Assembly (NCBI GenBank): GCA_039930525.1
Contig: JBDTTS010000002.1
Location: 9,197-33,196, forward strand
Direction: 5' to 3'
Source of the DNA: Actinomycetes bacterium
GTDB taxonomy: Bacteria; Actinomycetota; Actinomycetes; JAHEKZ01
DNA length: 24,000 bases
In this document: piece by piece, positions 1,581 to 17,800 of the stretch
How the letters are laid out: each line of letters opens with the position of its first letter
Position numbering within the stretch: the stretch's first letter is position 1
Program-made: the position numbers and the translations under genes
Notes under the pieces: model-generated
Told to the model about the DNA's origin: nothing
Databases searched by the model: none
What the model saw: the letters and a program-made list of their open reading frames with translations, nothing else

Positions 1581-1620
1581 CGTGTTTGGTGTGTCGGCAG
1601 GTAGGCCGCTGGTCCTGAGC

Positions 1621-1636
1621 CCGGTGTGAGCACCGG
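1621..1636 (-). terminator. Candidate stem-loop downstream of the SGNH hydrolase gene
   Basis: Perfect hairpin ccggtg-tgag-caccgg (6-bp stem, 4-nt loop) in the 72-nt gap between the stop at 1653 and the next minus-strand start at 1580. There is no U-tract, so this is weak. Confidence 0.25.
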
Positions 1637-1652
1637 ATGTGGGCCGGATGAG

Positions 1653-2288: not shown

Positions 2289-2337
2289 AAGAGAAAACTA
2301 GCGAGTCAGCGTGCCGTCAGGTGGACGCTCTCTTTCG

Positions 2338-3126: not shown

Positions 3127-3189
3127 GGGTTCATCATCGACCCGGTGGAGAGTGGCTGCCGCTGAAGGGGCAGATCGGCCAGATCACTA

Positions 3190-4083
3190 TTGTCGATGAC
3201 CATGGTTGAACCCGCGGTCGAGGTCCGCGGACTCGTGAAGACTTACGCCGGAACCCCAGCCGTCGACGGCATCGACCTGCTCGTGATGCGCGGGGAGTGT
3301 TTCGCGCTCCTTGGGCCAAACGGGGCCGGCAAGACAACGGCGATTGAGATCCTTGAGGGTTACCGCGCCCGCGAAGCAGGTGAGGCGTTGGTGCTGGGCC
3401 ACGACCCCGGTCGACCGACGCGGGCCTGGCGCAACCGCATCGGCATTGTGTTGCAGACGGCCACGGACAACGCAGAGTTGAGCGTGCACGAGGTCGTCAG
3501 CCACTTCGCTCACTACTACCCGGCACCACGAGACACAGACCAGGTCATCGACGCCGTCGGCCTGACCGACAAGCGGTCGACGAGGACGAGAAACCTGTCG
3601 GGCGGTCAACGGCGGCGACTCGATGTCGCGCTCGGCATCATCGGACGTCCAGAGCTGCTCTTCCTTGACGAGCCGACCACCGGCTTCGATCCGGAGGCTC
3701 GTCGCGACTTCTGGAAGCTGATCGGTCAGCTACGTGCCGATGGCACGACCATCCTGCTCACGACGCACTACTTGGAGGAGGCCGAACAGCTGGCCGACCG
3801 AGTGGCCGTCATCGCGCGGGGTCAGATTGTTGCCGAAGGCACTCCCTCGGCGCTGGGCGGGCGCGCGACTGCGGACGCAGTCGTGTCGTGGCGGACGCCC
3901 GACGGTGTCCAGACAAAAAAGACGGCGGAGCCCACGCGTCTGGTATCGGAGCTGGCTGCTCAGTACGACGGCGAGATCCCCGAGTTAACTATCCGCCGAG
4001 CCAGCCTGGAAGACGTCTACCTGTCACTAGTCGGCCGGCAGAACGAGAACGTGTCCGACGCAAACAGGGTGGGCGACCCATGA
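3190..4083 (+). CDS. ABC transporter ATP-binding protein (ABC-2/DrrA-like)
   Basis: Walker A 'GPNGAGKTT', signature 'LSGGQRRRL', Walker B 'LLFLDEPT'. The start is uncertain (TTG 3190, ATG 3196 or ATG 3202). The stop overlaps the next gene's start (ATGA at 4080-4083). Confidence 0.9.
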   Translation: MSMTMVEPAVEVRGLVKTYAGTPAVDGIDLLVMRGECFALLGPNGAGKTTAIEILEGYRAREAGEALVLGHDPGRPTRAWRNRIGIVLQTATDNAELSVHEVVSHFAHYYPAPRDTDQVIDAVGLTDKRSTRTRNLSGGQRRRLDVALGIIGRPELLFLDEPTTGFDPEARRDFWKLIGQLRADGTTILLTTHYLEEAEQLADRVAVIARGQIVAEGTPSALGGRATADAVVSWRTPDGVQTKKTAEPTRLVSELAAQYDGEIPELTIRRASLEDVYLSLVGRQNENVSDANRVGDP

Positions 4084-4880
4084 CCCCTACCCTCACCATT
4101 GGTTGGCACCGGTTCCGCGTCGAACTCAAGGAGTTTTTCCGGGAACGTGAGTCCGTAGTCTTCACCTTCTCGATGCCGATGCTGCTCATGCTGATCTTCG
4201 GATCGGTATTCAGTGGCGAGGTCGCCCCAGGGCTAGGCGTCACGTTCTCGCAGTACTTCCTCGCCGGGATGATCGCCTCCGGTCTTGTGTACAGCTCGTT
4301 TCAGCAGTTGGCCATTGCCATTCCGACAGAGCGCGACAACGGAACGCTGAAGCGGATCCAAGGAACGCCGATGCCCAAGGCGTCGTATTTCCTTGGCAAG
4401 CTGGGCGTTGTACTCATGGTGTATTGCGGCCAGGTGATTCTTCTGTTGCTCATCGGCGTGGTGCTGTTCGACGTGACGCTCCCCGACACCTGGTGGCAGT
4501 GGATCACCTTCTTGTGGGTGAGCACCTTGGGCCTGACCCTGTGCACGCTTCTCGGTATCGCCTTCTCAAGCTTGCCGCGCAGCGGGCGTTCGGCATCCGC
4601 CTTGGTGACACCGGTGATCTTGGTGCTGCAGTTCACGTCGGGGGTGTTCTTTGTCTTCCGTGATCTGCCGCACTGGATGCAGGTGTTTGCCTCGTTCTTC
4701 CCGTTGAAGTGGATGACGCAGGGGATGCGGGCGGTGTTCTTACCCGGCGAGTTCGCCTCGCAGGAGCCGGCGGGTGTGTGGGAACTCCCCCAGGTGGCGG
4801 CGGTGCTCGTTCTGTGGACGGTCGTTGCAATGGTTCTGGCGCTGACCACGTTCCGCTGGCAGCGCCGTGGTGATGGGTGA
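4080..4880 (+). CDS. ABC-2 type transporter permease
   Basis: I start it at ATG 4080 ('MTPTLTIGWHRF...'), which is translationally coupled to the ATPase stop. The track's 3888 start would overlap the ATPase C-terminus. About six hydrophobic helices, as is typical of ABC-2 permeases. Confidence 0.85.
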   Translation: MTPTLTIGWHRFRVELKEFFRERESVVFTFSMPMLLMLIFGSVFSGEVAPGLGVTFSQYFLAGMIASGLVYSSFQQLAIAIPTERDNGTLKRIQGTPMPKASYFLGKLGVVLMVYCGQVILLLLIGVVLFDVTLPDTWWQWITFLWVSTLGLTLCTLLGIAFSSLPRSGRSASALVTPVILVLQFTSGVFFVFRDLPHWMQVFASFFPLKWMTQGMRAVFLPGEFASQEPAGVWELPQVAAVLVLWTVVAMVLALTTFRWQRRGDG

Positions 4881-4881
4881 A

Positions 4882-5415
4882 CTACTGAGCCACCGGACTC
4901 GGTGGACTGATTGCCATGCCGCGCTTGTCGTGACAGACGTCTGGCCAGGGGCCGCGCGCCCATTGGAGCCCTGAGCCTGCGGCTGCGACGATGTCGGCTT
5001 CGTTCTCAGCGACCAGCTTTGCGGACTCGGTGTGTCGACTGACGTCACCGACACCTGCAAGGGTGAGCAGACCGCGCACATCGGCGAGGCGGTCGGCTAG
5101 CCATCCCAGGGGATCGGCGGGGATGGCTGGGTCGAACACCCGGTCTCCAGGCTCGCCCGCGGGCATCGTCGGGTGCCAGTGCATCCGGTCGGCAGCACCG
5201 GGTGACGACTCGAGCAGGTCGATGCGACAGACCGCTGGGTGCATCGTCACCGTTGGCGACGCGTAGATGGTCCCGACGTGCGATGAATCGACTGGGCGAA
5301 TCTCGACCCGCACTCCGCGTTCGCGAGTGTCGGGCGCTGATGCGAACGCTGGGTCTAGAAAGTCGATGCGCGTCACGGTCACCGAGAGGGTGTCGAAAAG
5401 CCAGGCCGTCTCCAT
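4882..5415 (-). CDS. Hypothetical protein (no recognisable family)
   Basis: Open frame with coding-like third-position GC. The start is either ATG 5415 ('METAWLF...') or TTG 5424. I recognised no motifs. It converges on the permease with a 1-nt gap. Confidence 0.5.
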   Translation of the reverse strand: METAWLFDTLSVTVTRIDFLDPAFASAPDTRERGVRVEIRPVDSSHVGTIYASPTVTMHPAVCRIDLLESSPGAADRMHWHPTMPAGEPGDRVFDPAIPADPLGWLADRLADVRGLLTLAGVGDVSRHTESAKLVAENEADIVAAAGSGLQWARGPWPDVCHDKRGMAISPPSPVAQ

Positions 5416-5644
5416 GACTTCCAACCTATAGATCCGATGGAACCGGTGATGACGCGCGTGCGATCAGTGCACATATCGTGGCTCAGCTCAGTAGTCATGC
5501 CGTGGCCGCCTAGCGAACCCACACGCGAAGTAGTCACAACCCGCCAGTTATGAACCATCCCGAAAGGCGATGGGGTACGCGCCGCATCGGGTCTACTGTG
5601 CCAGGCGTAGAGGGGGGTGGGGGAGCAATCCCAACGGGGCAACA

Positions 5645-7771
5645 ATGAAGCGCAATGCCGTCTTTCTGACCACGATCGCGGCTGTGGCCGCGCTTACCGC
5701 CAGTTCGCCCGCGATTGCTCGCGATGATGGCGATGACGACTTTAGCCCGGGAGCGGTCGGGGTTGGTGACCCGTACTACCCCACCGATGGGAACGGTGGC
5801 TACGACGCGACGCACTACACCCTCGACCTGGGCTACGACCCAGACTCGGATCGAATCTCGGGCAGCGTGACGATGAAAGCCCTAGCCACACAAGGTCTTT
5901 CACGATTCAACCTCGACATGAGCGGACTACGCGTTCATTCGGTCTCGGTGAACGAGCACCGGGCAGAGTGGCGTCGTGACGGTGACGAGCTGGTCATCAC
6001 TCCACGTCACGGGCTGGAAGACGGTGACGATTTCACCGTCACCGTTGACTACGCGGGGGTGCCGCAGACGCTGAATGACCTCTTTGGCGTATCAGGGTTC
6101 ATTCACACCGACGACGGCGCTCTTGTGATGGGGCAGCCGCACGGCGCCGCAACGTGGTACCCAGTCAGCGACCATCCCAGCGATCGTGCCTCTTACACCT
6201 TCCACATTCGCGTCCCCCAAGGCCTGACAGCGGTTGCCAACGGTGTTCTGCTCGGGAGAAACACCAGAAACGGACAGACAACGTGGAACTGGGAGGCCAA
6301 GGAGCCGATGGCCTCCTACCTCACCACCGCCACCATTGGTGAGTTCACCCTCCACAGTTACGAGGCCGACGGCCTGCGCTACTGGGACGCGGTCGACCCG
6401 GATTTGTATGCCCCTGTTGCGCAGCCGACCACCGGAACGCAGTTCGCCCAGTCGCAGGTGGCCAGCAATGGGTACAAGCGTCTGAGTCGAGTAATCGATG
6501 TCCCCGCGAGTGGAGGTTCCTTATCGTTCACAGTGACGCGCGACACAGAAGAGCCCTGGGACTTCTTCTTCGTCGAGGCTGTGCGTCCGGGATCTGGAGA
6601 CTGGACCACACTTGCTGATGAGAACGGTCACACGTCACGGAGCACGGGATGGTCTTGCCCATGGTGGCTGAACATCCATCCATTCCTGTCCCACTACCAG
6701 ACCCCCAGAAACAACGGCTGCCAGCCGTCTGGCACCTCTGGCAGCTGGTGGGCAGCAACAGGCAGCAGCGGTACCGCCGAAGACTGGAAGCTCGACCTGT
6801 CGGCATACGCGGGCCAGCGTCTGCGCATTGCCTTTGCCTACGCGAGTGATGAGATCGTTCAAAGGAGCGGCGTCTACATTGACGACATCGCCACACCGGG
6901 TGGTGAGGGGACGACATCCTTCGAGCCGGACGGCAACGTGTGGGATGGCTGGACGGTTCCAGGGTCGCCCAAGGGGAGCCCGACCAACGCCAACGACTGG
7001 ATCGTTGGAACCGTCGGCGACCTACCGCCGTCGCTCGGCGAGAAGGTCGACAGTTCGTTCGCTCGGCAACCAGACATCCTCAGGTTCCTCAGCCACAAGT
7101 TCGGGCCGTACCCGTTCGACGCGGCAGGCGGGATCGTCGACGATGTGTACGACGTTCAGTTCGCGCTCGAGACGCAGACGCGGCCGAACTACTCCCCTGT
7201 CTTCTGGGGCGACCAGGAGGACAGCGGCGACTCGGTGGTCGTCCACGAGAACGCCCACCAGTGGTACGGCGACAGCCTGACTGTGCGTCGGTGGAAGAAC
7301 ATCTGGCTCAATGAGGGTTTCGCGACCTACGCAGAGTGGCTTTGGTCTGCACATGAGGGTTCGTCCACCGAGCAGGAGAACTTCGACAGCATCTACTACG
7401 GGATCGGGAAGCGATCGAGCTTCTGGAAGGTGGTAATCGGTGACCCCGGGCCAGACCTGCTGTTCGACGGTGCGGTGTACTGGCGGGGTGCGATGACACT
7501 CCACCAACTGAGGGAGAAAGTCGGCGACCACGCGTTCTTCCGTACCTTGAAAATCTGGGCGGCGAAGAACCAGTACGGAACCGTGACGACCCGGAAGTTC
7601 CAACGTCTCGCGGAGCGTGTTTCCGGACAAGACCTCGACACGTTATTCCGAGTTTGGCTCTATACCCCCGAGAAGCCTCAGCTGCCCGGCTACCGATCGA
7701 CCGGATCGCGGACATCGACTGAGCTCGTCGCAACAGTTCGCAAGGCGCTGATCACCGCACGGAGGCGCTGA
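5645..7771 (+). CDS. Secreted M1-family zinc metallopeptidase with an inserted beta-sandwich-like module
   Basis: Start moved to ATG 5645, giving the signal peptide 'MKRNAVFLTTIAAVAALTASSPAIA'. Zinc site 'HENAHQWYGD' (HExxH) plus 'WLNEGFATY' (the third-ligand Glu 18 residues later), with 'FALETQ' in the GxMEN position. About 190 extra residues are inserted before the catalytic domain. Confidence 0.85.
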   Translation: MKRNAVFLTTIAAVAALTASSPAIARDDGDDDFSPGAVGVGDPYYPTDGNGGYDATHYTLDLGYDPDSDRISGSVTMKALATQGLSRFNLDMSGLRVHSVSVNEHRAEWRRDGDELVITPRHGLEDGDDFTVTVDYAGVPQTLNDLFGVSGFIHTDDGALVMGQPHGAATWYPVSDHPSDRASYTFHIRVPQGLTAVANGVLLGRNTRNGQTTWNWEAKEPMASYLTTATIGEFTLHSYEADGLRYWDAVDPDLYAPVAQPTTGTQFAQSQVASNGYKRLSRVIDVPASGGSLSFTVTRDTEEPWDFFFVEAVRPGSGDWTTLADENGHTSRSTGWSCPWWLNIHPFLSHYQTPRNNGCQPSGTSGSWWAATGSSGTAEDWKLDLSAYAGQRLRIAFAYASDEIVQRSGVYIDDIATPGGEGTTSFEPDGNVWDGWTVPGSPKGSPTNANDWIVGTVGDLPPSLGEKVDSSFARQPDILRFLSHKFGPYPFDAAGGIVDDVYDVQFALETQTRPNYSPVFWGDQEDSGDSVVVHENAHQWYGDSLTVRRWKNIWLNEGFATYAEWLWSAHEGSSTEQENFDSIYYGIGKRSSFWKVVIGDPGPDLLFDGAVYWRGAMTLHQLREKVGDHAFFRTLKIWAAKNQYGTVTTRKFQRLAERVSGQDLDTLFRVWLYTPEKPQLPGYRSTGSRTSTELVATVRKALITARRR

Positions 7772-7779
7772 GTTCCAAC

Positions 7780-7926
7780 GACAAGTCAAACGACTTGGCA
7801 GCGGCGGCATGTCTGTCGCGGGCTCACTTCAGCCGAGAGTTTCGTCGGGCCTTCGGTGAGACGCTCCACACGTACTTGCTGACCCGCAGACTGGAACGAG
7901 CGGCAACTCTGCTGCGCGGTACCGAC
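7780..7926 (+). pseudogene. Fossil fragment of an AraC/XylS-family HTH regulator
   Basis: The frame after the M1 stop reads '...LAAAACLSRAHFSREFRRAFGETLHTYLLTRRLERAATLLRGTD', matching the first HTH and linker helix of the AraC DNA-binding domain. There is no N-terminal domain or second HTH. Further downstream the frame is merely antisense to the oxidase gene. Confidence 0.55.
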
Positions 7927-9486
7927 TCACGACCACGGATAGATCGGCTTGTACTGCCGCTGCTCGAGGAAAGCCGCCCTCAGCCCATCGGGGTACGGGA
8001 TGTCGAGGACATCGAGGACCTCGGCGGCCACTCTGCTGCCCGACTCAGCCCCTCCGTTGAGGTAGCCCTGGCTGTAGACGGACGTGTGTTCGCCGGCGAA
8101 GTGCGCGCGTCCTTCGGATCGTCCCATCAGGCCTAGGAACGAGGTCATGTTGCCTGGTAGGAAGGCTGCGTAGGAACCTTTCACCCACGGATCCTTGGTC
8201 CAGTAGTCGAGCCACACACCTCCAACCTGGGCGGCGGCTATCCCCGGAAGCATCTCGTCGAGCGCGTCCAGCGTTTGATCGGCTACTTCCGTTGGGGCCG
8301 TTCCATGCGGCTGGTCGGTGGGGTAGGTCGCGCCAGCCGCACCACCGGCGAAGATCGTGACCAGCGCGTACTGGCGATCACTGGAGTCGGCGCTTCCCGA
8401 TTCCCATGTACTGAACTGGGGATCGTCCGCGCGCTGGAGGTAGCCGCTCCAGTTCTCGAACTCTCTCAACGGCTCGTCGAACTGGAGGAGCACCTTGGAG
8501 TTCGTGCCCATCCCTTGTCGGTTGATGGCCAACTTCTTGAGGTCAGAAAACCCGGCTTTGCTCAGGTCGACGTCCTGCATCGCGGTGAATGGCAGTGCAA
8601 GCACCAGGAAGTCAGCAACTACCGGCACCGACGAGTTGCCGAACACTAGTTCGTACTCACCGTTGGACAGTGTTCGAACAGATTCAAGGGCGGCATCCAG
8701 CGTGACAGAGCCAGCGGGGAGCGAAGCTGCGAGGCCTTGCGGGATCTGGTCGTTGCCGCCATGGATCGTGTAACGCTCGTCGTCGCCCGGCCACTCGACC
8801 GCGTAGAAGTCGATCAGGTTCGATGCGGACAACTGGTCGGCGTCGAGTCCGTACCAACTGGCTTGGCCGGCCGAGAAGAGCCGCCCCATGGGCGAGTCGA
8901 TGGACTCACCGGTCTCGGCTGTCAGCCACTCAGCTTCGGTCATCTCGTCGAAGGCCTGCGCCCTGACTCCCGCGTCTTTGGCGAAGTAGGAGCCATTGCG
9001 CTTGGCGACAGAGGTGAGTTGGCGGGACGTCTCGTTGATGGTCGCCATGAAGTCCTTACGGTCGACGTCGACGCCGTCGACCCAGGTCAGCGAGGACGTA
9101 CCGGGTTCCCAGGTGCTCCAGAGGTCATCGACTTGCAACTTGAGCTCTTGTGCGAGGCCGAGCAGGTGGACGTGGCGGGTGTCAATGAACTCGCCACCGT
9201 GCTCACCGACCTGGTCGGCCTCCCACCCGGTTGAGCTCCAGCATCGGCCACCCACCCGGTCGCGTGCTTCGAAGACGCTGACGTCGACGCCGGCTTGGCT
9301 GAGTCGGTAGGCGGCGGTCAAGCCGGCGAGGCCCGCTCCCACGACGACGACGCGGGGGCCACCTTTCGAATCTCTGGTTGAGGGCGTGGCGGCGGCGTCC
9401 GTCGACGGGGGGCTAGAGGTGCACGCACTCAACGTTAGGCCAGCGCTTAGCATCGTGCCCGACGTCAGAAAGGCTCGGCGCGTCAT
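7927..9486 (-). CDS. TAT-exported lipoprotein, flavin-containing amine oxidase family
   Basis: Start placed at ATG 9486, giving 'MTRRAFLTSGTMLSAGLTLSAC' (twin-arginine motif plus lipobox Cys). FAD fold 'VVVVGAGLAGLTAAYRL...VFEARDRVGGR', and a C-terminal 'HFAGEHTS' block typical of amine oxidases. Confidence 0.8.
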   Translation of the reverse strand: MTRRAFLTSGTMLSAGLTLSACTSSPPSTDAAATPSTRDSKGGPRVVVVGAGLAGLTAAYRLSQAGVDVSVFEARDRVGGRCWSSTGWEADQVGEHGGEFIDTRHVHLLGLAQELKLQVDDLWSTWEPGTSSLTWVDGVDVDRKDFMATINETSRQLTSVAKRNGSYFAKDAGVRAQAFDEMTEAEWLTAETGESIDSPMGRLFSAGQASWYGLDADQLSASNLIDFYAVEWPGDDERYTIHGGNDQIPQGLAASLPAGSVTLDAALESVRTLSNGEYELVFGNSSVPVVADFLVLALPFTAMQDVDLSKAGFSDLKKLAINRQGMGTNSKVLLQFDEPLREFENWSGYLQRADDPQFSTWESGSADSSDRQYALVTIFAGGAAGATYPTDQPHGTAPTEVADQTLDALDEMLPGIAAAQVGGVWLDYWTKDPWVKGSYAAFLPGNMTSFLGLMGRSEGRAHFAGEHTSVYSQGYLNGGAESGSRVAAEVLDVLDIPYPDGLRAAFLEQRQYKPIYPWS

Positions 9487-9646
9487 GGCGCTAGCACGGT
9501 GGACCGCTTCGTCAGCAGACATGTCGCGGGCGAGCTGCGACTTGAGCCGAAGCTGCACCATCGACCGCAGGAATCGGTCCTCGGGCGATCGGGGGCCTCC
9601 TGGCAACGCATCCCCCTCTTTACTCCGGCCAGCATGGGCGAGATGA

Positions 9647-9664
9647 GAGTTACAACAGTAACTC
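9647..9664. promoter_or_regulatory. Candidate operator palindrome in a divergent intergenic region
   Basis: gagttac-aaca-gtaactc: perfect 7-bp inverted arms with a 4-nt spacer, in the AT-richer 390-bp gap between the oxidase (minus) and the S1 protease (plus). Confidence 0.3.
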
Positions 9665-9876
9665 GGTTAGTGCCGACCAGCAGCGGATAGGCGACACCGA
9701 GTGAGCATCGGGCTACCAGTAGTTATAGGCCATTTCGTGCTATTCAAGAAGCGTCAATCGACTGCTATCTCTGTTTGTCAGAGGAGTCGATATCGGCTGT
9801 TCCGCGGAGAGATCGGGTCCCCTCCATACGCCGCAGATGGCGACGACGTGGTTCACGTTCGAGGAGGCTGCTGCAC

Positions 9877-10698
9877 ATGAAATTCCCTAGAGTCGTGATG
9901 CGCTCGATCATCATTGGTGCCCTGCTTCTCGTGGGCTTGGTCGTACCAGGGAAAGCGCAGGGAATTAGCTACGGCAGGCCCGATATGGGTGGTCATCCGA
10001 ATGTCGGCGCGCTGATCGGGCTCTTCCCCAGTCTCACCGGTGGTGATGACGAACTCTTCCAGGTGTGCACCGGCACCCTGATTGCTCCGAAAGTCGTCCT
10101 TACAGCTGCCCACTGCTTTCCTCCGAACTCCGACGCCAAGGATCGCTTCTTCACGTTCGACCAGTCCTATGAAGCGAACGAAGACGGCGTCGTTGTCGAT
10201 CCAGACATCTCCCTCTACAGCGGACACCAGGTGGTGCACCCTTCATTCGGAGCGAGTCCGAGAAGAGACAATCAGTACGACATGGCCGTGTTCCTTCTGG
10301 ATGAGGTGCCAGGCATCTCGCCAGCAGAACTCCCCGCAGCGGGTTTCCTGAACGACAAGGCGTTGACGGGGCAGTCGTTTACGACGGTGGGGTACGGCAT
10401 CACGAGGGACACCAATCACAAGGCTTGGCAGTCTTTCATGCTCGAGAACTCCATGCGCATGGTTGCCGAGCAGACGCTGACGGAGCGCACCGCTGCATGG
10501 GTCACGTTCTCGATGAACTTGGCTGCTGGCAATGGCGGGTCCTGCTATGGAGACTCTGGGGGGCCGCACCTGTTTGGAGATGTTGTCGTCTCCATCACGG
10601 TGGGCGGTGACCAGCCTTGCAAGGCCGTAGACAAGACGGTCCGTATTGACACTCCTGTCGCCCTTGAGTTCTTGGGTCAGTACGTCGCCGTCCCGTAG
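9877..10698 (+). CDS. Secreted trypsin-like (S1 family) serine protease
   Basis: Start at ATG 9877, preceded by gaggagg, giving the signal peptide 'MKFPRVVMRSIIIGALLLVGLVVPGKAQG'. Catalytic His in 'LTAAHC', Asp in 'YDMAVFLL', Ser in 'GDSGGP'. Confidence 0.85.
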   Translation: MKFPRVVMRSIIIGALLLVGLVVPGKAQGISYGRPDMGGHPNVGALIGLFPSLTGGDDELFQVCTGTLIAPKVVLTAAHCFPPNSDAKDRFFTFDQSYEANEDGVVVDPDISLYSGHQVVHPSFGASPRRDNQYDMAVFLLDEVPGISPAELPAAGFLNDKALTGQSFTTVGYGITRDTNHKAWQSFMLENSMRMVAEQTLTERTAAWVTFSMNLAAGNGGSCYGDSGGPHLFGDVVVSITVGGDQPCKAVDKTVRIDTPVALEFLGQYVAVP

Positions 10699-10741
10699 GT
10701 GCTTTGTGAGGAATTGACTCTGCTATGCGCAGGGTTCTCTG

Positions 10742-10933
10742 GTGTTGGTTGCATCATCCCTCTTGGTCGCAGCGTTTCCCGTCCTGGCGGTCGCCGGTCA
10801 TGATCTGCCTGCCCGCTCGTCGGCTTTGGGGCATAGCCGCGCCGACTGGGCGAGGAACTACACGCAAAGGTTCTACAGCGACGGTGACAACCACAGGCGA
10901 GGCATGTGGCTTCCCTTCACTGGGATAGGGTGA
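10742..10933 (+). CDS. Possible small secreted protein (63 aa), speculative
   Basis: GTG-initiated ORF with a signal-like N-terminus 'LVASSLLVAAFPVLAVAGH' and fairly high third-position GC. It ends 24 nt before the next gene. There is no recognisable family and no clear RBS. Confidence 0.25.
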   Translation: MLVASSLLVAAFPVLAVAGHDLPARSSALGHSRADWARNYTQRFYSDGDNHRRGMWLPFTGIG

Positions 10934-10956
10934 TCACAGCCCGCGAGGAGGCGTTG

Positions 10957-11685
10957 ATGTTCTTCGACCAGTATCCGCGTTTCGTCGAAACCAGTTCGAC
11001 TTCCAGCAGGCCTGCGCGACTCAACATGCGTCACCACGCAATGATCGAGTCCAATCGGTCCATCTTTGCGGGTGCGAGGGTCTTGGATCTTGCTAGCCAC
11101 GACGGTCGTTGGACCTTGGCGGCATTGGACGCTGGAGCATCCCACGCGATCGGCGTTGAGGGACGATCTGAGCTCGTGAAGAATGCCGAAGAGACTTTTG
11201 CTCTGTATGGAGTGGACGCAGCGACGTTCCGTTTCATCAACGATGACATCTTTGATGTTCTGCGCGCTCCGGATGAGAACGGGCTGGAGATCGACGTGGT
11301 CATGTGTCTGGGGTTTATCTACCACACGCTTCGGTACCAAGACCTCTTTGCCGGTGTTCGCTCCCTCAAGCCGAAGCACTTCCTCATCGACACAGCTGTC
11401 ATCTCCAGTGAGAGAGCAACGATCCTGGTGCATAGCGAAGATTCTTCGAAGGAATCTGCAGGATTGGATCACACGTTCCAGGTGGACGGGCGCCTGCTTA
11501 CGGGACGACCCTCGGTCAGCGCGCTCGAAATCATGCTTGAAGCACACGGCTTCACGGTGACTGAGCGTTTCGATTGGCCGGCGTATCTTGAGGCGAACTA
11601 CCCGAAGAACAAGACGGTCGGCTCTTACCGCGACGGCAAGCGTGTTACGTGGCTATGTGAGTTGGACGTGGTCGCTGCCGTCTGA
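10957..11685 (+). CDS. Class I SAM-dependent methyltransferase (atypical motif I)
   Basis: ATG 10957 is preceded by gaggag at 6-nt spacing. It has a Rossmann-type 'ARVLDLASHDGRWTLAALDAGASHAIGVEG' and 'DVVMCLGFIYH'. The glycine-rich loop is replaced by ASHDG. Confidence 0.65.
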   Translation: MFFDQYPRFVETSSTSSRPARLNMRHHAMIESNRSIFAGARVLDLASHDGRWTLAALDAGASHAIGVEGRSELVKNAEETFALYGVDAATFRFINDDIFDVLRAPDENGLEIDVVMCLGFIYHTLRYQDLFAGVRSLKPKHFLIDTAVISSERATILVHSEDSSKESAGLDHTFQVDGRLLTGRPSVSALEIMLEAHGFTVTERFDWPAYLEANYPKNKTVGSYRDGKRVTWLCELDVVAAV

Positions 11686-11718
11686 GCCCGCCCGTTGCCG
11701 AGTCGGTGTCCAGACAAG

Positions 11719-11791
11719 TGCCCTCGGCTGGAATCGAACCAGCGACACACGGTTTAGGAAACCGATGCTCTATCCCCTGAGCTACGAGGGC
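11719..11791 (-). tRNA. tRNA-Arg (anticodon CCT)
   Basis: 73-nt cloverleaf read on the minus strand. Acceptor GCCCTCG/CGAGGGC plus discriminator A, D-arm GCTC/GAGC, anticodon loop TTCCTAA (CCT), T-arm GCTGG-TTCGATT-CCAGC. CCA is not encoded. Confidence 0.9.
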
Positions 11792-12630
11792 GGGACGTGC
11801 GGGATTCCTTGTGGGAAACCCGCTGGACCCTGCCGCGACCCTCGCGGGCGTTGGTCGGGCAAGTCTAGGGGGCGTGATCTTCGGTCGATTTGGTGCTCTG
11901 GGGGTGGTTCGCGCGCCAGTTTGTGGTCTTCGGCTGGTTTTCGGTCGTGCGTGGGGCGGGGGGTATCAGGCAGCGGCTTGGGTGGTGACTGTTGTCGGTC
12001 GATTGCCCGTTGCCAGGTGTGGCGGGCCCAAGCGTTCTGGGCGAGTGCGGCCATCAGAACGATGACGGTCTGGTTGTGCAAACCCCACGCGGGGAGCCGC
12101 CGGTTGTAGAAGGCGCGTTCGAACTGTGCGTTGAGAGACTCGGTGTCGGCGCGCATGCCGTATACGCGGGAGTAGTCGGGATCGGTTGGGGGCCGGACGC
12201 GCGGGTAGTCGCTGCGGTTGAACGTGTGTTCCTCCTCCGTTTGGGTCGGGGTGAGCGGTTCCCAACAGACGTGCGCGTTGTCGTTTGATCGACAGGTCAG
12301 GGTGTGGCGGGCGTAGAAGGCCCAGCTGCCGTCCGGTTTGCGATCTCGTTTGGTCTGGTGCCGTGTGACTTCGACGAAGTCGAGGGTTCCGTCGGCGGTG
12401 ACGACCCGCTCGCAAATCGTTCCACCGGCGGCGTAGAGCGAGTGCCTACCACACTGTTCAATCCAAGCGGTTCGCGCGCGGCTCGGGGGTAGTTGGGCGG
12501 TAGCGTGTCCGTGCTTGCCGATCACGATCCCACCGCGCTCTTTGCTCTTGCGACTGTTGACCGTCAGCGACGCCGGACTCGATAAGCGCACCCTGAACAC
12601 CCGACTCGCCCCGTAGTCCACCCACACCAG
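11792..12630 (-). mobile_element. Copy A: 5'-truncated DDE-transposase-like gene plus ~200-bp tail, flush against the tRNA 5' end
   Basis: ORF 11782..12627. 'YGMRADTESLNAQFERAFYNRRLPAWGLHNQTVIVLMAALAQNAW' shows Y-x2-R-x3-E followed by a W-G-x-H...LMAALA stretch. I associate this pattern with the C-terminal catalytic region of IS4/IS701-type DDE transposases; the family assignment is tentative. The N-terminal half is absent, and the frame is closed by a stop at 12631-12633, inside the heliorhodopsin RBS. The last ~70 Pro/Arg-rich codons running into the tRNA look like read-through of non-coding DNA. 12001-12453 recurs at 13566-14016, and 11792-12030 recurs at 17322-17523. Confidence 0.55.
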
Positions 12631-12642
12631 TCAAGGAGCCTC

Positions 12643-13428
12643 ATGTCCCCCGCCACGACCGCACCGACCGCCACCGGGGTCACCAGCCAACGCCTGAGCA
12701 ACCTGCGCCGTTGGAACATCGGTCTCACCGTGCTGCATCTTGGGCAGGCGGCAGCGATGCTCTTGCTCGCCAACGCGTTCGCCATCGGGGTCCTCTCGTC
12801 GTTTCCCGATGGCCCCCCGGGAACGAAGGGTCTGACGACCACGACCATCTTCGATGTGCGGATTGGATGGGCCATCGCGCTCTTCCTGGGCCTCGCGGGC
12901 CTGGATCACCTGCTGACGGCAACCCTCGCGCGCAAGGTGTACGAGCGAGACCTGGGCCGCGGCATCAACCGCTTCCGGTGGGCTGAGTACTCGGTCAGCG
13001 CCACGATCATGGTCATCGTGATCAGCATGTACTGGGGCATCCTCACGATCAACGCGCTGATCCTCGTCGCCGGGGCCAACGTGGCGATGATCTTGTTCGG
13101 CTGGTTGCAGGAGCGGATGAACCCTCCCGGGCGAACCTCGACCACCATGCTGCCGTTCTGGTTCGGGTCGCTCGTGGGGATCACCCCGTGGTTGGCGATG
13201 TCCGCCAACCTCGTCTACGTCAGCGACGACGCCCCTGGCGCGCTCTTCGTCATCCTTATCGTGCAGGGCCTGTTCTTCTTCTGCTTCGGACTCAATCAGT
13301 GGCTCCAGTACCGCGAGGTCGGCCGATGGGCCGACTACGCCTTCGGCGAGAAGACCTATCTGGTGCTCAGCCTCGGGGCGAAGTCCCTGTTGGCCTGGCA
13401 GATCTTCGCGGTGTCGCTCGCCGCCTGA
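12643..13428 (+). CDS. Heliorhodopsin (7-TM retinal photoreceptor family)
   Basis: 261 aa, with AAGGAG RBS at 12633-12638. Family blocks as I recall them from heliorhodopsin 48C12: 'LLLANAFA', 'GPPGT', 'ALFLGLAGL', 'FRWAEYSVSATIMVIVI' (counterion Glu, E115, codon 12985-12987), 'GANVAMILFGWLQER', 'LPFWFGSLVGITPWL', 'YLVLSLGAKSLLAWQIF' (Schiff-base Lys, K247, codon 13381-13383). The two conserved His residues (H32, H89) are present, with seven hydrophobic segments. Confidence 0.9.
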   Translation: MSPATTAPTATGVTSQRLSNLRRWNIGLTVLHLGQAAAMLLLANAFAIGVLSSFPDGPPGTKGLTTTTIFDVRIGWAIALFLGLAGLDHLLTATLARKVYERDLGRGINRFRWAEYSVSATIMVIVISMYWGILTINALILVAGANVAMILFGWLQERMNPPGRTSTTMLPFWFGSLVGITPWLAMSANLVYVSDDAPGALFVILIVQGLFFFCFGLNQWLQYREVGRWADYAFGEKTYLVLSLGAKSLLAWQIFAVSLAA

Positions 13429-13566
13429 GAACATCGAGGTTTGCTCCGGGTCGCACTCAAGCCGGCAAGACGATGCTGCTGCTGAACTGTCTGGCCGCCG
13501 CCGTCCCGCCCGATGAGCGCGTCGTCATGGTGGAGGAGGTCTTCGAGCTGCGAGTGCCACTGCCCG
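13427..13566 (+). pseudogene. Fragment of a CpaF/TadA/VirB11-type secretion ATPase (Walker A region only)
   Basis: Two frames together read 'ENIEVCSGSHSS' / 'AGKTMLLLNCLAAAVPPDERVVMVEEVFELRVPLPD'. Compare the family pattern NILVSGGTGSGKTTLLNAL...IPPDERIVTIEDAAEL. It is about 45 codons with a frameshift, begins at the heliorhodopsin stop codon and ends at transposase copy B. Confidence 0.6.
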
Positions 13567-14016
13567 ACTCGCTCGCTGCCAGGTGTGGCGGGCCCAGGCG
13601 TCCTGGGCGAGGGCGGCCATCAGCACGTTGACGGTCTGGTTGTGCAGCCCCCAGGCCGGGAGCCGCCGGTTGTAGAAGGCGCGTTCGAACTGCGCGTTGA
13701 GAGACTCGGTGTCTGCGCGCATGCCGTAGACGCGGTCGTAGTCGGGATCGGTTGGGGGCAGGACGCGCAGGTAGTCGCTGCGGTTGAACGTGTGCTCCTC
13801 GTCCGCTTGGGTCGGGGTGAGCGACTCCCACCAGTCATGCACGCTGTCGCTTGATCGACAGGTCAGGGTGTGGCGGGCGTAGAGGCACAACTGCCGTCGG
13901 GTTCGCGATCTCGCTTCGTCTGGTGGCGAGCGACTCAGCGAAGTCGAGGCTTCCGTTTGCGGTGACGACCCGCTCGTAGATCCTCCCCCCGGCGGCGTAT
14001 AGCGAGTGCCCACCAC
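13566..14016 (-). mobile_element. Copy B: internal fragment of the same transposase-like gene (frameshifted, lacks tail and 5' half)
   Basis: It aligns base-for-base by eye with 12001-12453; most positions are identical, with small indels. The translation is split over ORFs 13525..14022 ('...YGMRADTESLNAQFERAFYNRRLPAWGLHNQTVNVLMAALAQDAWARHTWQRA') and 13835..14239 ('...HSLYAAGGRIYERVVTANGSLDF'), so it has at least one frameshift. Confidence 0.7.
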
Positions 14017-14115
14017 CGTCACCGCCAGGTGTCGAAGAGCAGGGCTGTCTGCATGAGAGCCAAGCTACCGAGGTCGTTATGGAGACGGCACGTGGTGGAT
14101 GCGCGACCTTGGCTA

Positions 14116-14220
14116 CTTGGCGACGGTCACCTCGACGTATCCGGCTGAGTTGTACTGGTCGGCCAGCAGGTAGTGGATGTGGTCCGGTGAGCCATCCCCG
14201 GATCTCGGCTGGGTCTGCGT
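14116..14220 (-). pseudogene. Orphan 3' end of an unidentified gene
   Basis: 35-codon stop-to-stop frame 'TQTQPRSGDGSPDHIHYLLADQYNSAGYVEVTVAK*' with very high third-position GC and no start codon. It lies just beyond the point where copy B homology ends. Confidence 0.3.
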
Positions 14221-14355
14221 CTAGCTGGTGTCCAATCAATTATGATGACTACACGTCAGGCCAACCTGCTCGCTCTGGGCGAACAGCGATGTTTTGGAGG
14301 GCGATCGCACTCCACCAACGAAACTTGGTCATCCTCGACCTGAGTCGTGTCGACA

Positions 14356-15156
14356 TCACGTCGCTACGTAGACCAGAAACTTGTCCTCGGGTGTCGGTGC
14401 GAGGTCGTTGTACTCCCCCCGGACCTCAACCGAGTTGAACCCCGCTTGCTTCAACATCATCACAAGCTCACCGCAGAAGTAGAGGTTGGCGGTGAGCCGG
14501 TGGCTCTCCGCGGCGACGAGTTCCCCGTCGAGCCATTGGGATGCGTGGATCTCCCAGGACTCCTGTTGCCGCAGCGTGTCGAATCCCAACATCCGTGATT
14601 GCAGGGCGTATTCAAAGCCGTCAGGTCCAAGGCGTCGGGCGTGCCCTTGCATCGGTTGCGAAGCCTCTGGCAAATGGTCTTGTCGTGCGGCGAGCCAGTA
14701 CGCCCACCGGTCGGAGTCGGAGTAGGGCACCTCATTGTCCAGCACTAGCCGCCCTCCGGGTTCCAAGTGATCGCGCAGCTGTCGCAGCGCTTCCTGGTCC
14801 TGTTCCCGGGTCGATGCCAGACCCAATCCACCGCAAACGACGATCGTTCGGTACCGACGTGGCAGATCGAGCTCGTGCATCGCCTGGCAGTACAAGTTCG
14901 CTCTGGCGCCCACAGACTCAACTGCGTGATGGCACAAAGCCAACATGTCAGGTGAGATGTCGCACCCATCGACATCAAGCCCAGACTCGACATAGGGGAC
15001 CAGCAGCCGGCCGCTGCCGCACGCAACGTCCAGCGCCGGCTGCCCTGCCTCCACGAACCGACGGAAGTAAGCGATTTCCGGACCAGAGTCGCGAAACAGC
15101 GACCACCATCGAGCGACCAGTCCGTGATGCCAGCTCTGTGGCTCGACGGGGGTCAT
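14356..15156 (-). CDS. Class I SAM-dependent methyltransferase
   Basis: Motif I 'ALDVACGSGRLLVPY', 'GCDISPDML' and 'LEPGGRLVL'. I prefer ATG 15156 ('MTPVEPQSW...') over the track start at 15210, because 15157-15210 appears to belong to the decayed NTF2-like paralogue. Confidence 0.75.
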   Translation of the reverse strand: MTPVEPQSWHHGLVARWWSLFRDSGPEIAYFRRFVEAGQPALDVACGSGRLLVPYVESGLDVDGCDISPDMLALCHHAVESVGARANLYCQAMHELDLPRRYRTIVVCGGLGLASTREQDQEALRQLRDHLEPGGRLVLDNEVPYSDSDRWAYWLAARQDHLPEASQPMQGHARRLGPDGFEYALQSRMLGFDTLRQQESWEIHASQWLDGELVAAESHRLTANLYFCGELVMMLKQAGFNSVEVRGEYNDLAPTPEDKFLVYVAT

Positions 15157-15184
15157 GGGGCTGAACACTAGCCGGTGAGAGGGG

Positions 15185-15478
15185 CTATTCCTCGGCCACC
15201 ATCGGCGCATGAATCGAGCTGATGCGGTCCTGCTGATGGGTAAACTTCACACGGTGCGGAACACCTACTACTCGGGTGGATCGGGCGCGTGTTCTTGCGG
15301 ACCATGGCCTGGTGTCACTTCGTCGCTGCATGATTTGCCGTCCACGCATGAGGCGGGAAGTCATCGATGATCATGGTCAGGTGCGGGGCAGTCCCACGAA
15401 CGTTGACTGGGGCTTGCTCGTCTCGGCGAGCAAACCCGCGCAGGCTGTCGTTGACGCGCAGCCGATCTCCCTGAGGGG
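15185..15478 (-). pseudogene. Decayed tandem paralogue of the adjacent NTF2-like gene
   Basis: It reads 'SLRGFA...TMIIDDFPPHAWTANHAATK*HQAMVR' against the intact neighbour's 'AVRAFV...TLIIDDFPPHAWSGSRAATRWYQDMVR'. A TGA at 15315-15317 replaces the Trp codon. A second frame then gives 'RSTRVVGVPHRVKF', matching 'RSAYVVVPVDVRW', so there is also a frameshift. Confidence 0.6.
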
Positions 15479-15481
15479 CCC

Positions 15482-15883
15482 TCAGTACCAGGTCCACGCG
15501 CAGGCCGTGATGCGCCAGCCTTGGTCGCCCTCCTGGGCTGTCATCGCCATGTAGCCCACTCTTTGCGCTGGTGCGCCGTCTTCTAGCCATCGCACGTCGA
15601 CCGGGACGACGACATACGCGCTTCGGTTGCCACCCATCACTTTGCCCGATCCCTCGAGACGAACTGATGGTTCAGACATGCCGAACTCGCCGGCCATGCG
15701 AACCATGTCTTGGTACCACCTGGTCGCCGCACGGCTTCCGCTCCATGCGTGAGGAGGGAAGTCGTCGATGATCAGTGTCTCGTCCTCACAAGCGGCCTGG
15801 ATGAGATCGACGTCGTCATTGTTGAAGGCCTCGACGAATGCGCGAACCGCAGTCATGGGACCGAGATCGGTCACATCAACCAT
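15482..15883 (-). CDS. NTF2-like / SnoaL-like fold small protein
   Basis: ATG 15883 is preceded by GGGAGG at 6-nt spacing. 133 aa beginning 'MVDVTDLGPMTAVRAFVEAFNNDDVDLI', which resembles the opening of NTF2-like (SnoaL/DUF4440-type) proteins. Confidence 0.6.
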   Translation of the reverse strand: MVDVTDLGPMTAVRAFVEAFNNDDVDLIQAACEDETLIIDDFPPHAWSGSRAATRWYQDMVRMAGEFGMSEPSVRLEGSGKVMGGNRSAYVVVPVDVRWLEDGAPAQRVGYMAMTAQEGDQGWRITACAWTWY

Positions 15884-16151
15884 CTGCGACCTCCCAGAGG
15901 ACAGCACCCTTGTATCTGTGCGCTCACGTAGCACCCTAACGCTGTGGTCGCTATCGAGTCATGACGTGAGACCGACGCCGCTGGACCGGCGGCAGAGTGA
16001 GTTCGGGAGGGTTTAGGTGCGCAGCTGAGGGGCACCGAGAAAGGTTGAGGCACGACCACTCGTCTCCGCGAAGAATCGCGACACCCTCACTACGGGAAAG
16101 CCGGGGAGGTCACCGTGGCGGCCTGAGGGCGGTCGTTGTGGTACAGGACAG

Positions 16152-16586
16152 TCAAACACCCTCGGCGAGCTGGCGCGCGTATTCCTCGGCGTCGTAGGTT
16201 CCGATCGACTTCTCGATCAATCCATTGTCGCCCAGCGTCCAGGACTCGAATCCGTCCACCCGAACCGACTTGCCGGTGCCGCCGGGCCCGGTGTTGGTGC
16301 CGGTGAACGTCCAGTGGTACTCAACGGAGTCGTTCTCCACGATCAGGTCGCGCAAGTAGACCTGCATGTCAGGCAGGCCTTCGTAGAAGCTTGCCGCCAC
16401 GGCTGTGAGGGCCGCTGTGCCAACGGCAGCCGCACCGCCGTTGATCGCCAAGGAACCATTCGGTGCATAGTGCGCAGCGACAGACGCGGGATCCCCGCTG
16501 CACCAGGCCGCCGTGTAGCTCTCGGCGAACGACCTGAGCTTGTCGATATCCTCGGCCACGGGGTTTCCTTCCGGATAGCACTCCAT
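16152..16586 (-). CDS. SnoaL-like (NTF2 superfamily) ester-cyclase-type protein
   Basis: '...LRSFAESYTAAWCSGDPASVAAHYAPNGSLAINGG...FYEGLPDMQVYLRDLIVENDSVEYHWTFTGTNTGPGGTGKSVRVDGFESWTL' is the typical SnoaL polyketide-cyclase-like pattern. The start is uncertain (ATG 16586 has no spaced RBS); the longer 16721 start probably reads through a GNAT remnant. Confidence 0.65.
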   Translation of the reverse strand: MECYPEGNPVAEDIDKLRSFAESYTAAWCSGDPASVAAHYAPNGSLAINGGAAAVGTAALTAVAASFYEGLPDMQVYLRDLIVENDSVEYHWTFTGTNTGPGGTGKSVRVDGFESWTLGDNGLIEKSIGTYDAEEYARQLAEGV

Positions 16587-16589
16587 CTC

Positions 16590-17136
16590 CGTATGAGCCC
16601 ACGGTAGAGCACGGGCGCATCCGCTCGCATGGAATGCGAGCAGCTCTAGACCGGAGGACCGATCGGGATCGACGTCAGCGTCCACTAGCGCGTCTCGGCG
16701 AAGTGGCCACCCTGCAGCCACGATGATCGATCGGGTCGCATGTCAGCGCGGCCACCCTTCGCGTGCCTCCCTGAGCATGCCAGTGGAGGGCCGCAGGCTG
16801 CAGCACTGACATTCGGTCGAGCATCGCCATCAGGTCAGCGTGTTTGTAGGACTCGACGGTCTGCGTCAACGAGGACACGAGGACCTCGGCGACTTCGTGA
16901 GCGTCCGGGGGCATCCAGACAGCGACCGCGGAGCTGTCGCCCAGATGCCAGACACCACCTGCGTCATATGCAGCCGCAGAGGTCTGCGACAGAAAGATGG
17001 GAAAGCCTTCGAGATCGCGTTCGGTCTCGGGATAGAGCCATCTCTGCACCGGATCCTCGGCAAACGCCAGGATCAATGTGGCTTCGGCAGCCGCCCGCTG
17101 ATCGTCGCGAACTAGTGAAGCTCCGTCGCGTCTCAT
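16590..17136 (-). pseudogene. GNAT-like acetyltransferase, probably frameshifted or truncated
   Basis: The N-terminal half 'AAEATLILAFAEDPVQRWLYPE...GGVWHLGDSSAVAVWMPP...LHW' resembles a common actinobacterial GNAT subfamily. The expected acetyl-CoA-binding Q/RxxGxG/A segment after 'HW' is missing in this frame, and a possible C-terminal remnant lies in the frame of ORF 16152..16721. Confidence 0.35.
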
Positions 17137-17321
17137 GCGGAGACCCTATTGGCACTCTGGGATCCAGCCCAGAGTCCTGACCGGCCTGTAGCACAGTGCG
17201 CGGCACCGACGCCGCCTCCCGAGCGTGCTCCTGCGAACTCTTGTGTGACAGATCAGACTTCATAAGGGAGGTCCACAAAGGTTGACTTAGGACTACTTGT
17301 CTCCGCGGCCAAGCCGACAGC

Positions 17322-17800
17322 CGGAACGTGCGGGATTCCTGTGGGAACCTGCTGGACCCTGCGGCGGCCCTTGCGGGCGTTGGCCGGGCTCAAGTTCCTT
17401 GGCCGGTTTCCGGTCGTGCCTGATCTAAGGAGGTTGCGTGAAGTGTGAGGCCCGGGTGTCAGGCAGCGACTTGAGGAGGTGATGGTTGTCGATCGATCGC
17501 CTGCTTCCAGGTGTGTGGGCCCAGTCGGAGTCGGGATCGGTCGGTGGCCGACGACGAGCCCCAGGGGAGCATGGAACCCAGGGACAGGATTGTCACGATC
17601 CACGCAACAGTTGCCTGCCCGAACTTGCTGCTCGAGTCGTTCCGCACTCCCATGTGGCACCGTCCCATCGATTCAGAATGTACTTCGGGTGGAACTGCAC
17701 TGCCTCGTCCCAGGTTCGGGCCAGCGCCGCAGTCTTCGACTCAACTGAAAGTTGCTCGAGCACGAATGCTGCTTCCAGATTTGGCCATATCTACTTCCAC
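17322..17800 (-). mobile_element. Copy C: divergent terminus of the transposase-like element (tail plus last few dozen codons)
   Basis: 17322-17523 aligns with 11792-12030 (shared 'acgtgcgggattcct..gtgggaa..ctggaccctgc..gcgggcgttgg.cgggc' ... 'tcaggcagcg.cttg' ... 'ccaggtgtg.gggccca'); copy A carries about 60 extra nt. ORF 17459..17668 ends 'GPHTWKQAIDRQPSPPQVAA', against copy A's 'ARHTWQRAIDRQQSPPKPLP'. Upstream of that point only weak, frame-broken similarity remains. Confidence 0.5.

Follow-up and report, generated by a model that had tools for sequence, protein, structure and literature searches.

A heliorhodopsin gene among insertion sequence remnants beside a tRNA-Arg gene in an actinobacterial metagenome contig

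How did an intact heliorhodopsin (HeR) gene come to lie between two direct copies of a truncated transposase-like gene, and can it still move? The question is raised by a 24,000-nucleotide stretch of the Actinomycetes contig JBDTTS010000002.1 (positions 9,197 to 33,196), which is part of a metagenome-assembled genome (MAG) and is called the window below. An earlier note on this DNA described HeR as a promoter-less cassette packaged between the two copies. The reading that we favor, with a probability of roughly 0.65, is that HeR is passenger DNA in a decaying array of insertion sequence (IS) copies at a tRNA hot spot, where it was joined to its neighbors by illegitimate recombination. Features of the window are collected in Table 1, and loci from other genomes that were used for comparison are cited by L numbers.

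The direct repeat that frames the question is real. A gapped local alignment of 12005-12452 with 13571-14016 has 396 identities in 448 columns (88.4%) and two 1-nt gaps, a similarity far beyond chance, and the two segments have the same orientation. They bracket HeR (12643-13428, plus strand), as the earlier note had seen by eye, and it was also right that both encode the same C-terminal part of one transposase family; their coding sense is the minus strand. A full-length homologue (P0002) aligns by tblastn through amino acids 273-464 at 12552-11977 and through amino acids 307-455 at 14014-13570. The left match lies within a 281-codon open frame (11782-12627, minus strand), and the right one is spread over three frames.

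Full-length relatives of the repeated gene have ~467-484 amino acids and lack a Pfam domain. A profile search groups the family into 896 clusters at 50% identity, and every source checked names its members 'hypothetical protein'. Across 67 diverse members aligned at a mean column identity of 25%, the sole invariant acidic residues are D146, D248, E224, and E410 in P0002 numbering. D146, D248, and E410, which lie in VDGK, DGA, and R-x-D-x-E-S-x-N motifs, correspond to a catalytic triad. The sole recurrent Pfam family is DDE_Tnp_1 (7 of 67 members, best E = 2.1e-5), with DDE_Tnp_1_6 found in two more. P0002 and the ORF (open reading frame) of the window repeat also match the NCBIfam IS1182, IS1380, and IS5 models weakly (E = 0.01-0.1) on the catalytic motifs. 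Neither of these two sequences has a Pfam match, the repeat ORFs give nothing or only E ~0.03 against Pfam, NCBIfam, and PHROGs, and the family profile finds only noise among PDB sequences. In an AlphaFold model (pLDDT 70), the N-domain is helical and the core has the order strand-strand-strand-helix-strand-helix; there is also a beta-rich insertion, and a long helix lies at the C-terminus. This predicted fold is only suggestive of a DDE transposase, and a Foldseek comparison of the model with the PDB gives no significant match. Together, the size of the family, its invariant triad, the DDE_Tnp_1 hits, the predicted fold, and the anatomy of the element that carries the gene indicate that it encodes a divergent ~467-aa DDE transposase.

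That anatomy is clearest in L012, where a complete element of 2,239 bp (3187-5425) contains a single 467-aa gene and is bounded by inverted repeats, with the 9-bp sequence GCCCYCGTA on both sides. Its terminal inverted repeats are 17-18 bp long (GGACGTGCG... and ...CGCACGTCCC); the left repeat (IRL) reads GGACGTGCGGAAAACCCC and the right repeat (IRR) reads GGAATTCCGCACGTCCC. The consensus across copies is GGACGTGCG[G/T][G/A]AAAC..CC for the IRL and GGAAT[T/C]CCGCACGTCCC for the IRR. With its inverted termini, the 9-bp repeat that flanks it, and its DDE enzyme, this element has the anatomy of an IS.

The 9-bp flanking repeat is identical to nucleotides 1-9 of tRNA-Arg. A scan of species-representative genomes yielded 40 loci of this IS, and 17 of the 26 that were also scanned for tRNA genes have a tRNA-Arg (anticodon CCT or TCT) downstream of the transposase gene. 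L001, L002, and L012, which are independent contigs, have the full-length gene ~195 nt upstream of the tRNA on the same strand, and one 2.9-Mb contig (L013, L030) has copies at both its tRNA-Arg(CCT) and its tRNA-Arg(TCT). Copies that lack an adjacent tRNA still end in its first nine bases followed by an inverted copy of the terminus, and the head-to-tail junction ...GGAATYCCGCACGTCCC | GCCCYCGTA | GGACGTGCGKRAAACTCC... occurs in at least 12 loci. All but two of the 40 loci come from Actinomycetota MAGs, the exceptions being the isolate Nocardioides agariphilus KCTC 19276 and a MAG labelled Myxococcales (L047). Several MAGs hold two to four of these loci, and many loci are C-terminal fragments. 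Judged from these sequence comparisons, the element inserts at nucleotides 1-9 of tRNA-Arg(CCT/TCT) and keeps the tRNA intact.

The right end of the IS may also serve the tRNA gene. A right-end alignment reveals, within the IS and ~72 nt before the tRNA, a TANNNT hexamer that is conserved in all clades and even in relatives with 50% identity (TAGACT, TAGAAT, TAAAAT, or TACACT in the right ends of L001, L002, and L012-L048). The copy in the window is TAGACT at 11867-11862 on the minus strand, within the remnant that adjoins the tRNA. This IS-borne element probably supplies the tRNA promoter.

A distant clade differs in its gene content. In L002 (4701-5585) and partly in L001 (2-166), the transposase gene comes after an ORF of ~295 aa that resembles a tyrosine recombinase; the L002 ORF matches Phage_int_SAM_1 (E = 2.8e-5) and Phage_integrase (E = 0.0099), and no left inverted repeat occurs within 6 kb in this clade. 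The L002 ORF suggested that the 467-aa protein might be an integrase partner at a tyrosine-recombinase attachment (att) site. This idea is rejected for the clade of the window because the complete 2.24-kb element of L012 holds only the 467-aa gene. A split integrase of the SSV type is ruled out as well, since the gene is intact when integrated.

The window contains three remnants of this IS. Remnant 1 is longer than the left copy of the repeat, which it includes: it extends up to 12552 on one side and down to 11792 on the other, where it adjoins the 5' end of an intact tRNA-Arg(CCT). The earlier note had overlooked these extensions and the tRNA contact, and likewise the third remnant and the lack of a left IS end. 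Remnant 1 retains transposase amino acids 273-467, a ~190-nt 3' noncoding end, and the right inverted repeat GGAATCCCGCACGTCCC (11792-11808), and nucleotides 1-9 of the tRNA (GCCCTCGTA) are the IS target and flanking repeat. The layout is the same as that of the full-length gene in L001, L002, and L012. Amino acids 1-272 are missing from remnant 1 and with them D146 and D248, and the two catalytic aspartates are also absent from remnant 2. Remnant 3, which lies 3.3 kb past the right repeat, consists of the last ~20 transposase codons, the stop codon, the 3' noncoding end, and a right inverted repeat with one mismatch (17323-17339). The window thus has two right inverted repeats, and no left end is present in it within 3 mismatches. 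None of the three remnants can be functional, and the repeats that flank HeR have no present function. Lacking a left IS end and an intact transposase, the HeR unit is unable to transpose; it could be deleted only if the repeats, which are 88% identical, recombined by a RecA-type route.

The HeR gene is intact and nothing about its protein is unusual; compared with HeR 48C12, only its genomic setting is. It covers positions 1-241 of the 242 in Pfam model PF18761 (E = 3.8e-87, 292 bits with a cutoff of 26.7), scores 241 bits with the NCBIfam HeR equivalog NF038020 (cutoff 100), and aligns over its full length with 48C12 (PDB 6SU3, E = 5e-55). Residue identities read from this last alignment show conservation of the segment of the retinal Schiff-base lysine in transmembrane helix 7 (...SLGAKSLLAWQIF, with SL-AKS-LAWQIF in common) and of that of the counter-ion glutamate in transmembrane helix 3 (FRWAEYS, with FRW-EYS in common).

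The closest HeR genes, with 90-92% amino-acid identity, are found in quite different neighborhoods. The 90%-identical gene of a Cellulomonas MAG (L003) is accompanied by TrwC relaxase, MarR, PemK/RHH toxin-antitoxin, and HTH_17 genes (1176-4622 and 7469-11674), a setting that resembles a conjugative or integrative element. HeR is adjacent to an RHH/PIN toxin-antitoxin pair in L004-L007 and to an ABC transporter in L008-L011, and L054 presents a further distinct context. Nucleotide homology to the window begins 76 nt (L004), 48 nt (L008), or 35 nt (L003 and L054) before the HeR ATG, at window positions 12567, 12595, and 12608, and it ends at the stop codon (13428/13429) in every comparison. No recombination-site-like repeat is present at these limits. 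The recurrence of this 863-bp module in at least four unrelated contexts indicates, at the level of sequence, that this HeR clade relocates as a small self-contained unit. The mobility of HeR that the earlier note had proposed is therefore supported mainly by comparison among these contexts, and the unit in the window is not mobile now.

From 12567 onward the window is collinear with L004-L007 at 91% identity. HeR therefore came with a native leader of at least 76 nt, which includes an AAGGAG Shine-Dalgarno sequence at 12633-12638. The leader in the window lacks 7 nt, CACC[C/A]AC (12626-12632 region), that precede the Shine-Dalgarno sequence in all other copies. A tight left junction with no more than ~12 nt of native DNA before HeR, as previously proposed, is incorrect. 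That proposal relied on a transposase frame that stays open up to a minus-strand TGA at 12631-12633. The in-frame TGA is present, but the open frame across 12553-12630 is the HeR leader read antisense in high-GC DNA; transposase homology stops at ~12553.

The right junction is as tight as the earlier note had stated, with homology to other HeR loci ending where a fragment of a TadA/CpaF/VirB11-type ATPase begins. A downstream region common to L004 and L008 is absent from the window, and HeR has therefore lost its native 3' flank here. The ATPase fragment contains the Walker-A region (GRTQAGKT) and matches positions 184-223 of 340 in TIGR03819 (E = 7.7e-7, 28.6 bits with a cutoff of 373) and VirB11 (E = 2.9e-4). 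It is not a full-length ATPase; it is a pseudogene fragment cut on both sides, for which neither a donor nor a close homologue was found. The partners have no sequence in common at the HeR junctions, and the flanks of the four junctions are not shared with other HeR or IS loci. This pattern argues for illegitimate joining. Of the illegitimate or transposase-associated arrival envisaged earlier, the nonhomologous joining is upheld.

A unit packaged by the transposase itself fares less well. HeR would then be a promoter-less cassette between truncated transposase copies, a composite-transposon-like or amplifiable unit that arose by transposase-associated recombination. The transposase-derived direct repeats on either side of the gene are what this model expects, and the right junction at the stop codon fits it too. 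A scan of 11600-14400 for the sigma-70 consensus also found no promoter anywhere, but this consensus is of the E. coli type and the region is high in GC, so the scan carries no information. The gene is not demonstrably a promoter-less cassette: a conserved native leader travels with it, and there is no recombination site. Neither flanking copy has the catalytic aspartates, the second copy has two frameshifts and no IS end, and the window lacks an IRL. The repeats have also diverged by 11.4% and are not clearly each other's nearest relatives. We consider this origin improbable.

The relationship of the two copies bears on how the repeat arose. Remnants 1 and 2 are ~88.4-88.6% identical, their longest common perfect runs are ~32-33 nt, and remnant 1 is 90.3% identical overall to a copy from another MAG (L013). 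In the 3' quarter, remnant 1 has 96.4% identity to the L013 copy and 92.0% to remnant 2. Because remnant 1 is nearer to the L013 copy than to remnant 2, the repeats do not represent a recent local duplication. An in situ segmental duplication would have copied part of remnant 1 locally, by replication slippage or unequal exchange, to give remnant 2; HeR would already have been in place, and separate IS insertions would not be required. Remnant 2 is indeed a strict sub-segment of remnant 1, and the two are weak sisters in a neighbor-joining tree. This origin is nevertheless quite improbable given the affinity of remnant 1 to the L013 copy; moreover, the third remnant and the arrays in many genomes suggest that multiple insertions are the norm, and the ATPase scrap fused to remnant 2 is left unexplained.

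A Campbell-type integration is a serious alternative, if an unlikely one. Circular or larger foreign DNA that carried HeR, the ATPase scrap, and IS positions ~1456-2004 would have recombined with a resident IS that retained positions ~1558-2239, and direct repeats of the shared 448-bp segment would arise automatically. The limits of the repeat would then be one truncation point per partner (IS position 1558 at 14016 and IS position 2004 at 13571), and a single step would account both for the direct repeats and for the greater length of the first copy on both sides. In favor of such an event, the 9-mer GCCAGGTGT is found at both limits of remnant 2. Homologous recombination at 88% identity is inefficient, however, and neither a crossover mosaic nor a reciprocal nearest-neighbor switch is discernible along the two copies. 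Nor is there a candidate donor with HeR beside this IS among the 89 HeR loci. The two occurrences of the 9-mer (13578-13586 and 14024-14032) lie inside the IS sequence and just outside the homology, respectively, and they may be microhomology from a rearrangement or a chance match.

The array reading draws on the behavior of the IS in other genomes. Head-to-tail pile-ups of the element occur upstream of tRNA-Arg in many Actinomycetota MAGs; L024 has four successive right ends in 5.4 kb, and further arrays are present in L013, L022, L037, and L042. Unrelated passenger genes often lie in these arrays with a left end on one side and a 5'-truncated transposase gene on the other (L013:7125-11956, L024:3559-8962, L025:81-3398, L030:1496-6627, L033:3433-6469, and L037:1980-10211). 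They include a Big_9/cadherin/RTX adhesin, an adenylate-cyclase-AAA protein, an ABC-2 permease, a flavin adenine dinucleotide (FAD) oxidase, a pyridoxal phosphate (PLP) enzyme, an ArsP permease, and an HTH-cupin protein. The position of HeR between remnants matches the place where these other arrays hold their passengers. A short nonautonomous derivative is common to four MAGs (L021:11-984, L022:944-1798, L024:6565-7537, and L028:~5700-5830) and has the identical internal junction ...TTTGGCACATC|CCCCGCTCGCCGCAAGAGC at IS position ~1443 in each of them; remnant 1 of the window is cut ~13 nt further in.

The order of events that we infer begins with insertion of the IS at nucleotides 1-9 of tRNA-Arg, where duplication or retention of GCCCYCGTA would keep the tRNA intact. 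Successive insertions at the same site would build head-to-tail arrays that decay by deletion. HeR, with its leader and the ATPase scrap, would have arrived as IS-associated cargo, a foreign passenger of the tRNA-proximal unit, and would have come to lie between remnants 1 and 2. Deletions would then have removed the left ends and the junctions between units and left the three remnants. HeR is presumably expressed from its own leader or by fortuitous upstream transcription; co-transcription is also possible in the other three contexts, where HeR follows a gene of the same direction.

Several observations weigh against this history. Neither an empty site nor HeR at this tRNA was found in related genomes, and no fetched genome has these flanks. 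This IS is found at none of the 89 other HeR loci and HeR at none of the 40 IS loci, which makes their association a single case. The 9-nt core and the IRL are missing at both places where they are expected, past remnant 3 and in the interval from remnant 2 to remnant 1, so the array model needs at least two extra deletions. The identity of the transposase depends on sub-threshold profile hits, motif, and anatomy. Finally, the contig comes from a single MAG, and the remnant 1 ORF and the HeR protein are found on no other contig.

This last point would also be expected if the contig were an assembly artefact, chimeric at the repeats or junctions. We regard an artefact as very improbable. The junctions at 12553-12566, 13429-13431, 13566-13570, and 14016/7 lie outside repeated sequence, and perfect runs of at most ~33 nt are too short to mislead a large-k assembly. 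The region is of even composition throughout, and equally scrambled arrays occur in other MAGs in contigs of long-read scale, among them the 2.9-Mb contig of L013.

A tentative and rather doubtful extension of the array history is that the tRNA-Arg IS is the platform of an unrecognized cargo-accretion system in Actinomycetota and that HeR is cargo whose unit has lost its left end. Nonautonomous units composed of a left end, foreign genes, a 5'-truncated transposase gene, and a right end would be mobilized in trans and stacked upstream of tRNA-Arg, and the IS end would re-supply the tRNA promoter each time. If this is true, a DDE element would collect genes at one site, as an integron or island does, and the spread of HeR would have a concrete vehicle.

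Comparison with known systems places the IS nearest to the IS4/IS5 superfamily (DDE_Tnp_1). It shares with that group a D..D..E triad, a C-terminal motif of the Y-x2-R-x3-E type, terminal inverted repeats, and the presence of multiple copies of which many are decayed, and its 9-bp flanking repeat has the length known for IS10 and IS50. In contrast to these elements, the lineage in the window reaches the threshold of no curated model, it is site-specific for nucleotides 1-9 of tRNA-Arg, and a promoter-like element in its right end faces the tRNA. Composite transposons of the Tn5/Tn10 type likewise bracket a passenger gene with two copies of one IS. Here, however, both copies are internal or 3' fragments that together retain a single IS terminus (IRR), there is no outer inverted-repeat pair or outward-facing pair of functional ends, and no transposase is intact. 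An integron-like promoter-less cassette is also poorly matched by a module that has a 76-nt native leader and no recombination site.

Genomic islands formed by tyrosine integrases at tRNA genes resemble the arrays in their repeated site-specific integration, in the outward displacement and decay of older elements, and in the short tRNA-derived repeat at each junction and the diverse cargo that accumulates. They differ in that the target here is the 5' rather than the 3' end of the tRNA, the recombinase is DDE-like, and the units are the size of an IS; a tyrosine-recombinase-like ORF occurs only in the distant clade (L002). ISEcp1- and ISCR-type units also place a passenger beside an IS without a second complete IS. 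Unlike these, passenger units in other genomes are bounded by canonical left ends, and the transposase here is 5'-truncated. HeR is also antisense to the IS, which therefore is not its promoter source as it is in an ISEcp1 unit.

The function of HeR is still debated and its gene neighborhoods serve as clues, with few conserved neighbors emerging from neighborhood studies. At this locus the neighbors are mobile-DNA junk. In the papers on HeR evolution and neighborhoods that were checked, a word search finds no discussion of mobility apart from reference-list matches and one use of 'horizontal'. Relative to those texts, the recurrence of the HeR module in multiple contexts is a modest addition. 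The IS family, with its specificity for the 5' end of tRNA-Arg and its passenger-bearing arrays, appears to be the more novel finding. Nucleotides 1-9 of tRNA-Arg are an unusual target for a bacterial IS, and insertion there may represent a new route of gene accretion at tRNA loci.

Table 1. Features of the window around HeR (positions in the window)
Feature	Position	Strand	Evidence or description
tRNA-Arg(CCT), intact	11718-11791	minus	ARAGORN; Rfam tRNA, 65 bits
IS remnant 1	11792-12552	minus	IS ~1456-2239; tblastn 89% to P0002; blastn to L001, L012
Left copy of direct repeat	12005-12452	minus	Sub-segment of remnant 1, frame intact
Junction J1	12553-12566		~14 nt ACTGTTGACCGTCA, neither IS nor HeR module; side-by-side parental sequences
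HeR module, 863 bp	12567-13429	plus	87-91% nucleotide identity to L003-L011, L054
TadA/CpaF/VirB11-type ATPase fragment	13431-13568	plus	46 codons, directly after HeR stop codon
IS remnant 2	13571-14016	minus	IS ~1558-2004, aa 307-455; two 1-nt frameshifts, neither IS end
Stretch between remnants 2 and 3, 3.3 kb	14017-17322	minus	Pfam
S-adenosylmethionine (SAM) methyltransferase	14356-15210	minus	Pfam; between remnants 2 and 3
Two SnoaL-like ORFs	15482-15934, 16152-16721	minus	Pfam; between remnants 2 and 3
153-aa ORF	16675-17136	minus	Between remnants 2 and 3
IS remnant 3	17323-17527	minus	IS ~1975-2239; tblastn aa 450-467, E = 5e-5; DNA alignment with 11791-12030

The tRNA is the sole match in an Rfam scan. 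The stretch between remnants 2 and 3, which also includes unassigned spacers, has no homology in any fetched locus; it represents either passengers or older chromosomal sequence within the array. The remnant 1 ORF is listed at NCBI as 'hypothetical protein ABI720_00285' (269 aa, Actinomycetes MAG); it is a chimeric pseudo-ORF in which the transposase remnant is fused to HeR leader sequence read in antisense and to a read-through extension that enters the IS end and the tRNA. A 267-aa ORF antisense to HeR (12631-13434, minus strand) is an artefact of high GC content.

One locus of this IS has a more elaborate arrangement. In L038 a degenerate tRNA-like sequence (GCCCAGGTAGCTCAGGGCTTATACC..., 7347-7390) comes after an IS right end, and an intact tRNA-Arg(CCT) lies 3.3 kb beyond it with a left IS end downstream (10686-11785). 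The tRNA-Arg hot spot has thus undergone a more complex rearrangement in this MAG.

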